The position numbers and the translations under genes were made by a program. A stretch of DNA of 64,000 nucleotides from Octopus vulgaris (lineage: Eukaryota), in NCBI GenBank assembly GCA_951406725.2, contig OX597821.1, positions 78,988,001-79,052,000 of the forward strand, read 5' to 3'. The notes below the pieces were generated by a model, which had not been told where the DNA came from, searched no databases, and saw only the letters and a list, made by a program, of their open reading frames with translations. Of this stretch, positions 33,301-63,133 are shown piece by piece (the first letter of the stretch is position 1; every line of letters starts with the position of its first letter).

Positions 33301-36300
33301 GTAGGGATATTAATAGTGAATGTTAAATATAAAGTTTCTACCTTTATAAACAAGGAGTTACAACACCTTTACTTGTGAGATTTTTGCTGCCCTGGCAACT
33401 ATTTATTCATTTTCCGTGTTAATTGTTAAGAAGGTAAAATACACTCATCTATATATATATATATATATATATATATATAAATATCAAACTAAGGTTATAG
33501 AACAAACAAATGCAAGGTCATCCATATAACATTTTATAACTCGAACATTTAATCATAGAATATACATTTAAACATCACGGAAGATGGAACATAACTCATC
33601 TGTACAAGCATATAAGAAAGTGCGAGAAAAATGTGTGAATACAGTTCATCACGGTTAAAAGTTAATACTTTAGCGATTAATAAAATTATATTTAAAAAAA
33701 ACATTACAACACCTAGAAATTAAATACGTAAAAATATAGTATAAAGTAATATATAGATATATAGGTATATAAAAATATATAATATATATATATATATATA
33801 TATATATATATATATATATATATATATATATATATATATATATACATAGGAAAATATATATAGGGGCGTTCAATAAGTAATGCCCCTGACCCACTTGCAT
33901 TTGTTTGATCTAGCTGAAATATTGCATGTGCACTTATTTATACCTCTATAGATTAAGTGGCGAATTACAGCTCTGAACTAATTGTGGTTTCTGATTTACA
34001 GGTGTTTGAACTGAGTCAAGTGTGAAATGGAGCCTGTTGAGTGTCGAGCTGTGATCTGGTTTTTGTATTTGAAAGGACGCACACCACGGAAGACTTTTGA
34101 TGAAATGAAAGTAACTTATGGTGATGATGCCCCATCATATGACCTTGTAAAACGCTGGCATTGTGAATTCAAACATAATCGGAACTCTGTGGAAACAGCT
34201 CCCAGATCTGGTCGCCCCCTTCTGCCGTTGATGAGACGTCTGTCCGTCAAGTTGAGGCTGCCATTTTGGAAGGTCAACGCATAACTATTCGCCAAATAGC
34301 CCATAAGGTCAAGATTAGTACCGGGTCTGTGGAAACTATCATTCATGACCATTTGCATATGCAAAAGGTGTCTGCCAGATGGATTTCCAGGCTGCTCACA
34401 CCTTTCCAGAAGCAAGAACGCGTTGAGTGCTCGAGGATGAATTTGGAGATGTGCCAAGAAGATGAGTCAAAATTTTTCAAAAGACTGATCACACAGGATA
34501 AAACCTGGGTCCATCACTATGATCCATAGACCAAAGCCCAGTCAATGCAGTGAAAGCACCGTGACTCACCTCCTCCAAAGAAGGCAAGGGTGCAGCCCTC
34601 CGCTGACAAGGTTATACTCACAGTCTTCCGGGACCAGAACGGAGTAGTGATGACAGATTTCCTGGCAAAGGGTACCACAATTACAGGAGCCTATTATGCT
34701 TCACTTTTGAGGAAATTAAGAGAAGCTATCAAAATCAAGAGGCGGGGCAAGATCAGCAAAGGCATCCTCCTCCTGCAGGACAACGCTCCGGTCCACAACT
34801 CGCGTTTCGCCAGATCAGAAGCACAGGCGTGCAGCTATGAACTCCTCCCCTTGCACCCTCTGATTTTCACCTCTTCCCAGCCATGAAGTTGATTTTGAAA
34901 GGAAAGCGTTTCCCAGATGATGCAGCCTTGATTTCTGAAGTCACGGCGTGGTTGGAGGACCAAGCTGGGGTCTTCTACAAAAGTGTCGTTGCTCTATTGC
35001 TATGGGAAGTGGGTCAGGGGAATTACTTATTGAACGCCCCTCGTATAATGTAAAATAAAATAAAAGTTCATCGTTTAGAAAATCTTATAAAATTACTTTT
35101 CAAGTAAGAGAGGCCTTATATTTAAAAAAGAGGAAACCATATTTTCATTCCCTACGGCCATTTCAGGAGTATATTATTGTGTTTAAAGCACTAGGGTGCA
35201 TCACGATAATAACTCCTTCGTCAGGTGTTAGCCTGGTACGCGATGATGTCTGTCTCTCTATTTTTCCCATGACGAAGGAGTTAATACCGTGATGCACCGT
35301 AGTGATTTAAACACAATAATATACCCCTGAAATGGCCATAGGGAATGTAAATATGGTTTCCTCTTTTTTAAATATAAGGCCTCTCTTACTTGAAAAGTAA
35401 TTTTATAATTTTTTCTAAACGATTAACTTTTATTTTATTTTATTTTACATTATATATATATATATATTTTATATGCTTCCTATATATATATATATATATA
35501 TATATAGAGAGAGAGAGAGAGAGAGAATGGTAGTATACTGTCAATCTAACATGAACGTGACGGTAGGGGGTACACCACCGCTGTTTACGTTCGTATTAGA
35601 TTGACAGTATACTACCATTCTATCGCCCCACCACCGTACATGTCTCTACGAGAGATTTAGAAATTTAGTATTTCTGATATATATATATGTATATATATAT
35701 ATATATATATATATATATATATATATTTATATATTTTTATATACCTATATATTTATATATTACTTTATACTATATTTTTACGTATTTACTTTCTAGGTGT
35801 TGTAATTCTTTTTTTTAAATATATATTTTTCTTAATCGCTAAAGTATTAACTTTTAACCGTGATGAACTGTATTCACACATTTTTTTTCGCACTTTCTTA
35901 TATGCTTGTACAGATGAGTTATGTTCCATCTTCCGTGATGTTTAAATGTATATTCTATGATTAAATGTTCGAGTTATGAAATGTTATGTGGATGACCTTG
36001 CATTTGTTTGTTCTATAACCTTAGTTTGATATATTTGTCTCTTTCAATTGAGCACTTCTATAGCAGTCCTAGTAAACATTTTGTTCCTGATAAGAAACAA
36101 TCACTGTATTATTGATATATATATATATATATATATATATATATCCCTCCTATAGAAACACATATTTGCACCTCCCTCCTATATAAACACAAATATTCCT
36201 CCTCCACCTCTTGCTGCTGTTTTCACTTTTACTACGAATACTATAGTAAGAGTATTTCCAAAACCTCACCTTTACTGATTTCTACGCTTTTCAGGTTCTT

Positions 36301-63133: not shown

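Follow-up and report, generated by a model that had tools for sequence, protein, structure and literature searches.

The window analysed here is a stretch of 64,000 nucleotides (nt) from the genome of Octopus vulgaris (contig OX597821.1 of assembly GCA_951406725.2, positions 78,988,001 to 79,052,000), whose minus strand carries part of a gene for an adhesion G protein-coupled receptor (GPCR) with a tandem array of five-exon coding cassettes in its ectodomain. We find this array to be real, spliced and recently homogenised, and it is probably variable in length. The full reading that we favour, with reasonable though not strong confidence, is that of an octopus adhesion GPCR with eight assembled cassettes, each made of a SEA-like and an HRM domain, which likely vary in number by unequal crossover and likely form a glycosylated spacer for a leucine-rich repeat (LRR) head.

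Layout of the array and domains of the receptor

Self-BLAST of the window places the array between position 40250 and the window end, with units that are 95-98% identical; the same self-comparison gives short diverged matches at 36838-38709. When the genome itself was searched with a 4.5 kb piece of the array, seven consecutive copies were recovered on contig C8. Mapping of the exons over a further 140 kb on the right side of the window and 60 kb on its left showed that the assembled gene contains eight modules, where a reading made from the letters of the window alone (the sequence-only reading) had proposed at least four SEA-HRM pairs. In the protein the exons follow the order C (95 or 83 nt), D (53), E (158), A (115) and B (101). 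AG and GT ends are present on all 40 module exons, and the 522-nt modules splice phase 1 to phase 1, with no stop, into a unit of 174 amino acids (aa) that comprises the SEA-like and the HRM domain; the exon sizes and the in-frame splicing that had been read from the window were thus recovered in full. Modules 2-7, of 522 nt each, differ from one another at only 0-3 nt (99.4-100% coding identity across these six copies), while modules 1 and 8 diverge from them by 12-14%. From module 7 to module 1 and on through GAIN, GPS and seven transmembrane (TM) helices a single open frame of 1,828 aa runs to the stop, with AG and GT at every internal exon inspected, and the array sits between the LRR head and this intact GAIN-GPS-7TM part. 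The positions in the window are as follows.

40250..64000, strand not assigned: tandem array of 7.5-8.2 kb genomic units, extending about 29.7 kb beyond the right window edge
62976..63133, minus: module 4 exon E, 158 nt, C-terminal half of the SEA-like domain
60842..60956, minus: module 4 exon A, 115 nt, N-terminal half of HRM
59866..59966, minus: module 4 exon B, 101 nt, C-terminal half of HRM
58810..58904, minus: module 3 exon C, 95 nt, strand 1 and helix 1 of the SEA-like domain
57482..57534, minus: module 3 exon D, 53 nt
55429..55586, minus: module 3 exon E, 158 nt
53343..53457, minus: module 3 exon A, 115 nt
52367..52467, minus: module 3 exon B, 101 nt
51312..51406, minus: module 2 exon C, 95 nt, array type (array-type B-to-C joint seen in RNA contigs)
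49987..50039, minus: module 2 exon D, 53 nt
47878..48035, minus: module 2 exon E, 158 nt
45780..45894, minus: module 2 exon A, 115 nt (Pfam HRM, E 0.0029)
44790..44890, minus: module 2 exon B, 101 nt
43762..43844, minus: module 1 exon C, 83 nt, in an island of sequence that is older and differs from the array by about 12-17%
42460..42512, minus: module 1 exon D, 53 nt, same as array type
40972..41990, plus: decayed mariner-like transposon present in every unit, many stops common to units
40388..40545, minus: module 1 exon E, 158 nt, 99-100% identity to array type
38342..38456, minus: terminal HRM exon A, 115 nt, single copy (Pfam HRM, E 0.0038)
36270..36439, minus: terminal HRM exon B, 170 nt, extending into GAIN, single copy
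31992..32223, minus: GAIN exon 1, 232 nt
31673..31832, minus: GAIN exon 2, 160 nt
17990..18142, minus: GAIN exon 3, 153 nt
16440..16562, minus: GAIN exon 4, 123 nt
15517..15672, minus: GPS exon (Pfam GPS, E 1.6e-15) with the HL|T cleavage motif, running into the first part of the tethered-agonist sequence
14904..14954, minus: predicted 51-nt linker exon between GPS and TM1, picked by splice sites and frame
12217..12317, minus: TM1 exon (Pfam 7tm_2 weak on TM1 alone)

Exons C and D of module 4 lie just to the right of the window, and the TM2-TM7 exons, in frame to the stop, 17-25 kb to its left. Beyond the outermost module, on the upstream side, come a Cys-rich domain, an LRR cap and LRR exons in colinear order; the LRR count is that of tblastn alone, as a pattern search for 72-nt LRR exons missed known ones. 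If the head measures about 490 aa, the length that it has in the relative P0030 of O. bimaculoides, the whole predicted protein would come to about 2,500 aa. Protein searches retrieved no annotated full-length product of the locus, and exon E as a query against longer proteins gave no match, a weak negative given that this search covered proteins of up to 2,000 aa. The Cys-rich domain, which separates the LRRs from the first SEA-like domain and lies to the right of the window (G000:C8:79117589-79121873, L007), ends CC-x-G-x-[LI]-C, an ending that recalls the three-finger domains of Ly6/uPAR; it matches no Pfam family and its model is of low confidence.

The receptor shows the hallmark of adhesion GPCRs, i.e. 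a GAIN domain that ends in a GPS with the HL|T motif before TM1, and a paralogue matches solved GAIN-7TM chains. Pfam 7tm_2 is above cut-off in seven of seven relatives, and the motif for autoproteolysis and the tethered agonist appears to be intact.

The cassette had been read as HRM plus SEA-like, and the two halves fared differently. Exons A-B match Pfam HRM (PF02793) in all 11 family modules with a best E-value of 4.1e-5; the first member is under the curated cut-off, the whole protein P0018 scores 30.4 bits against a cut-off of 26.2, and the window exons give E-values of 0.003-0.004. Exons C-E owe their SEA assignment to predicted folds, and the models are of paralogues rather than of the spliced product of the array gene. 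In an AlphaFold model of a P0018 module, residues 1-101 form a beta-alpha-beta-beta-alpha-beta arrangement (predicted local distance difference test, pLDDT, 58-84 by block), and the model of the whole paralogue has the same topology. A wide structural search (VIA) put the SEA domain of mucin-16 first (Z 8.7, root-mean-square deviation 3.5, 101 aligned) and TMPRSS6 eighth (Z 8.1), but the mucin-16 match is tied within 1 Z with unrelated ferredoxin-like folds; in the Atlas structure search two SEA clusters came out on top, though below its bar. Several other results also count against the assignment. Pfam SEA (PF01390) matches none of the 11 family modules, nor exons C-E on their own, the HRM half failed in the P0018 module model (pLDDT about 30), and Foldseek with the SEA-like model returned generic ferredoxin-like folds with no SEA listed. 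A module profile brought up no solved-structure relative at the sequence level. SEA-like would nevertheless seem a fair name for the domain of exons C-E, given its predicted fold and its position before HormR-GAIN as in GPR126, whose own SEA domain was missed by sequence searches and found via structure (PMC6954182). The translation of module 3 contains 12 N-glycosylation sequons, and neither a GSVVV-like nor a furin motif was found in it (strand 2-3 loop).

Splicing, copy number and the outermost module

Read contigs were compared for six of 24 listed runs, two of DNA (X1 and X2) and four of RNA type (X15, X16, X19 and X20). All are short-read contigs, and the RNA-type status follows from splice joints that are absent from the DNA runs, since none of the listed runs is recorded as RNA. 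The D-E, E-A and A-B joints occur at the exact predicted splice sites in all four RNA-type runs, which come from four studies, and so does the B-to-C joint that connects one module to the next (array type in at least three of the four, module-1 type in at least three of the four); in both DNA runs the splice joints have depth 0 in the distal stretch. The gene is thus transcribed and its cassette spliced in frame, with neighbouring modules joined in RNA contigs, as had been supposed. Relative to the single-copy terminal joints, the depth of array joints is 24-30x in X15, 6.6-8.1x in X16, 3.1-6.5x in X19 and 3.2-4.3x in X20. In X16 the contig of module 8 exon E has a depth of 23 versus 30.5 at the terminal joints, i.e. 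both ends of the array look single-copy and the middle about eightfold. These depths are compatible with transcripts that traverse the whole array, and most transcripts would then hold all copies.

In DNA, contig depth is about 400 over the array and 44.5 over the flank in X1, and 800-1,100 and 54-60, respectively, in X2. The array/flank ratio is therefore 9.1x (X1) and 16-18x (X2) on the lowest flank and 3.0x and 6.8x on the highest, bearing in mind that contig depth is not copy number and that the single-copy baseline is uncertain about threefold, which tells against any exact count. A false duplication made by the assembler would be expected to yield nearly identical copies such as these; nevertheless, we rejected it as largely refuted and give it hardly any credence, because, whichever baseline is taken, the depth of the array contigs is no less than 3 times that of the flank in X1 as well as in X2, and because the units vary in length and show differences in an ordered pattern. 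The array is multi-copy, the duplication claimed from the window is genuine rather than a single-copy artefact, and the assembly may undercount its units. As for unit length, units 4-6 are longer than units 1-3 by 450-750 nt, owing to an extra block near the D-E intron microsatellite (window 62846 onward); the block is also found in unit 7 and is a marker for tracing crossovers.

Copy number likely varies between animals, the array depth ratio of X2 being 1.8-2.6 times that of X1 under every baseline. These two runs carry different organism labels, however, and the difference may be one between species. Polymorphism within a species is at the level of a hint, strengthened only by three RNA runs that share one organism label, in which the array-joint depth ratio ranges from about 3x to 30x. 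Hence the earlier suggestion of length variation by unequal crossover is likely, with DNA depths that differ about twofold, and within species it is no stronger than that hint.

It had also been claimed that no copy has a stop, a frameshift or a broken splice site. This is true of the splice ends and of the open modules 7 to 1, but not of the outermost module 8, outside the window, where exon B as assembled is 100 nt long, 1 nt short, and the resulting frameshift gives a stop ahead of the array. Taken at face value, the allele would be broken in module 8, the full receptor would not be made, and the excess of array joints would come from circular or truncated RNAs. The run in which array joints exceed terminal ones 24-30 times would suit such a scenario, as would the E-to-A joint, which is indistinguishable from a back-splice because the copies are identical. 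Nonetheless we find it quite improbable. The terminal unit that carries module 8 has five private 1-nt deletions versus 0-1 in each of the other six units, an extra base is present at three nearby intron sites in the listed contigs of every run covering them, and at the exon B site the dominant contig has the extra base in four of four runs, the remaining depth there being compatible with paralogue contigs that end at this site. Moreover, in one organism label the RNA ratio of about 8x agrees with the DNA ratio of about 9x (lowest baseline). Since the 31-letter word is not quite long enough to tie the exon B site to the module-8 marker base, the 1-nt deletion is likely, but not proven, to be an assembly error. 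The D-E intron of module 8 also contains a very high-copy repeat, with a summed depth of up to about 1.6 million (L021:5900-9480).

Origin of the array and the possible role of its length

We envisage an older duplication that would have given rise to the internal module type, followed by amplification of this internal module, which unequal crossover and gene conversion may have kept uniform. As the cassette is in phase 1 at both ends, gain or loss of a unit leaves the frame intact. A paralogue on chromosome C29, which encodes the public protein P0018 (O. vulgaris 'ADGRG6-like'), consists of three modules, their exons equal in size and phase to those described here; the internal A and B exons share 86-92% identity with the internal ones of the array gene and 73-83% with the terminal types. 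The O. bimaculoides protein P0030 (two modules, labelled 'toll-like receptor 5') shares the same internal exon type, which, being common to both genes, must predate the array. Intron differences are 0.24-1.56% among units 2-6 and about 3% for unit 1. In module 1, exons D and E are of the array type whereas C, A and B are older, which points to conversion reaching into the terminal module.

Evidence for constraint on the exons depends on the units compared. With unit 1 included and the old island around its exon C excluded, three of 427 exon columns are variable versus 158 of 5,415 in introns (p = 0.003), but without unit 1 the figures are 3/522 and 91/6,101, and the difference is not significant (p = 0.12). 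Three of five coding variants are synonymous. The stops in the mariner-like transposon had been put forward as a contrast to the intact exons; they are, however, largely common to the units, hence older than the amplification and uninformative on exon selection, and this argument has to be given up.

Exchange may not be confined to the array. Its exon C is 97-98% identical to that of module 2 of the three-module gene on C29, versus 79-89% for neighbouring exons, and a single-module gene on C29 has exons C and D identical to those of the first module of the three-module gene and exons A (98%) and B (94%) similar to those of its last. There are signs here of exon exchange between paralogues, as if the single-module gene had contracted from the three-module one. 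About 60 loci with an HRM exon are clustered on three small chromosomes (C29, C30 and C31) and others, exceeding the 21 sequences (two species) of the published group 3 (PMC6408891). One further family member lies to the left of the window on the opposite strand, tail to tail (G000:C8:78907991-78941087), with 7TM exons and exon A. In a second octopus subfamily (P0031-P0033, P0036, P0038-P0040, P0046, P0048 and P0050) a second, partial SEA-like domain ends the models, which lack GAIN; these are possibly an independent duplication or secreted forms.

On the reading that we favour, a presumably uncleaved and heavily glycosylated stalk would hold the LRR head away from the GAIN-7TM unit, and stalk length might alter the reach or force threshold of tethered-agonist signalling. 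The latter step is the least certain and draws on an analogy with Drosophila dCIRL, where engineered spacers blunted the mechanical response (PMC5548486), a conclusion that a reviewer there deemed overstated. Two further points weigh against this reading. No contig extends past neighbouring joints, so an all-module transcript is a prediction from the joints of neighbouring modules, and the function of the stalk is drawn from sequence and models, with protein, ligand and signalling all predicted. A stronger version, in which alleles of roughly 4 to 30 SEA-like/HRM beads segregate and make this a length-polymorphic GPCR, a heritable ruler of reach or force threshold in skin, suckers or nerve cord, is possible but rather doubtful.

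One may also consider that the array is real and spliced while its length merely drifts and is tolerated, a recombination-prone, frame-symmetric cassette having expanded in one of about 60 redundant family members without any function of copy number. The units are very young or homogenised and exon constraint is modest, and the 72 exon-A matches in the genome are clustered at only two loci, here (8) and at the C29 paralogue (3), the other 61 standing alone, all of which speaks for drift. We consider this an unlikely, if serious, alternative, on a par with the ruler of segregating alleles, since internal-type modules have been retained in the paralogue and in the O. bimaculoides gene, the second subfamily has its own extra SEA-like start, and exons are less variable than introns when unit 1 is included. 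Still less probable, in our view, is that the repeats act as binding units rather than as a spacer, the SEA-like/HRM surfaces or their glycans acting in the manner of a mucin-like receptor at skin, sucker or gill, where they would bind a ligand (matrix, peptide or microbial) with higher avidity. HRM domains do bind peptides in secretin-class receptors (PMC12716839), the tissues that express group-3 receptors include axial nerve cord, suckers, skin and gills (PMC6408891), and MUC16 repeats SEA domains in five-exon units (PMC3431878). Yet the ligand is only hypothetical, glycans on the 12 sequons of each module would probably cover a large part of the protein, and near-identical copies bring no new specificity.

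If the spacer reading is correct, its interest lies mainly in mechanosensing, where the tuning of adhesion GPCRs by ectodomain length rests largely on the engineered dCIRL spacers (PMC5548486). The octopus family offers natural receptors with 1, 3 and 8 or more modules, so the length model becomes testable with native parts. Short-read annotation splits or mislabels such genes, as the relative named 'toll-like receptor 5' illustrates.

The introns of the gene also hold mobile elements. A LINE-like element occupies 26674-30754 (minus strand) in a GAIN intron, with an open frame of 1,095 aa and an upstream frame of 308 aa. Remains at 24-2018, 7069-9114, 19170-21448 and 33481-36032 comprise a decayed retroelement, a mariner-like copy flanked by 357-nt inverted repeats, and frames that resemble reverse transcriptase.

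Comparison with known receptors and coding repeats

Of the 29 protein matches 28 are from Octopus and LRR exons lie colinearly upstream, and the gene would belong to the octopod 'ADGRG6-like' family and fit group 3 of Ritschard et al. 2019 (PMC6408891). It resembles that group, an octopod expansion of adhesion GPCRs, in its GPS and adhesion 7TM, in the LRRs of some members, and in being octopod-limited and clustered; the paper names GPS, 7TM, LRR and Death domains, and HRM is absent from its main text. Among the named relatives, those that contain the whole module come from Octopus or Argonauta, and most bear the label 'ADGRG6-like'. Most loci of the family differ from the array gene in holding one module. 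P0018 (three modules) and P0030 (two) contain the same cassette, but their modules have diverged and form no homogenised array, and their names are automatic.

The vertebrate receptor ADGRG6/GPR126 shares the order SEA-HormR-GAIN-7TM (PMC6954182), and the best Foldseek match of the paralogue model is PDB 6V55 (E 6.7e-11). ADGRG6, however, has a CUB-PTX head and one SEA-HormR pair, in contrast to the LRR and Cys-rich head and the eight modules of the octopus gene, and a furin site in many mammals and birds that is absent from the octopus module. No CUB or pentraxin family was found in the seven relatives scanned, and the upstream exons match LRRs and the Cys-rich domain. By its predicted architecture, then, the octopus receptor is not ADGRG6.

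The statement of the sequence-only reading that adhesion GPCRs normally have at most one HormR domain has its counterexamples. Besides the three-module paralogue, a profile search of 1.84 billion representatives, with 44 matches, pointed to proteins in public collections with several such domains. The lamprey model XP_032828479.2 (P0078, 'uncharacterized') is of ADGRG type with a CUB head and has four HRM-like blocks in the order SEA-like, HRM x3, SEA-like, HRM before GAIN, where the SEA-like label comes only from inspection plus a weak self-alignment. With the octopus SEA-like profile alone these lamprey stretches received no score, and hhalign matched only an HRM. Lamprey copies are diverged and their domain order differs from that of the octopus array, and the repeats are likely of independent origin. 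The second SEA-like stretch of P0078 contains a basic furin-type motif. The unnamed ENA proteins P0069, P0076, P0077 and P0083-P0085 have 6 to 47 tandem near-identical HRM domains, and their models gave no match to a GAIN or 7TM family. Repeated HRM thus exists elsewhere in databases, and repeated SEA-HRM probably does too.

As for novelty, a literature search of main texts, mostly outside subscription journals, returned no description of receptors with repeated SEA-HormR, and HRM repeats are unmentioned in the parts covered of PMC4302439, PMC12716839, PMC6900090 and PMC8584163. The architecture can accordingly be called undescribed in the literature searched, though database proteins share repeated modules. 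SEA-HormR can be repeated as a unit, a possibility that current descriptions of these receptors do not mention. In ADGRE2 and ADGRE5 the number of EGF domains differs between forms (PMC8584163), but these are transcript variants of a fixed, diverged set, whereas the octopus gene has a near-identical genomic array of a two-domain unit.

The closest working analogues may instead be sought among multi-exon coding variable number tandem repeats (VNTRs), since near-identical tandem units of whole exons, spliced in frame, are what the octopus gene has. The kringle IV type 2 (KIV-2) VNTR of LPA consists of 5.6 kb units, 1-40 per allele (PMC11462820), and MUC16 has SEA repeats of 156 aa with five exons each (PMC3431878); both resemble the octopus array in their kilobase-scale coding units of whole exons in tandem. 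Neither LPA nor MUC16 is a GPCR, and for LPA polymorphism and phenotype are proven, whereas polymorphism of the octopus array is hinted at by depth alone. Should the octopus receptor turn out to be length-polymorphic, it would represent an LPA-style coding repeat in a GPCR and a natural allelic series for mechanosensing by ectodomain length.

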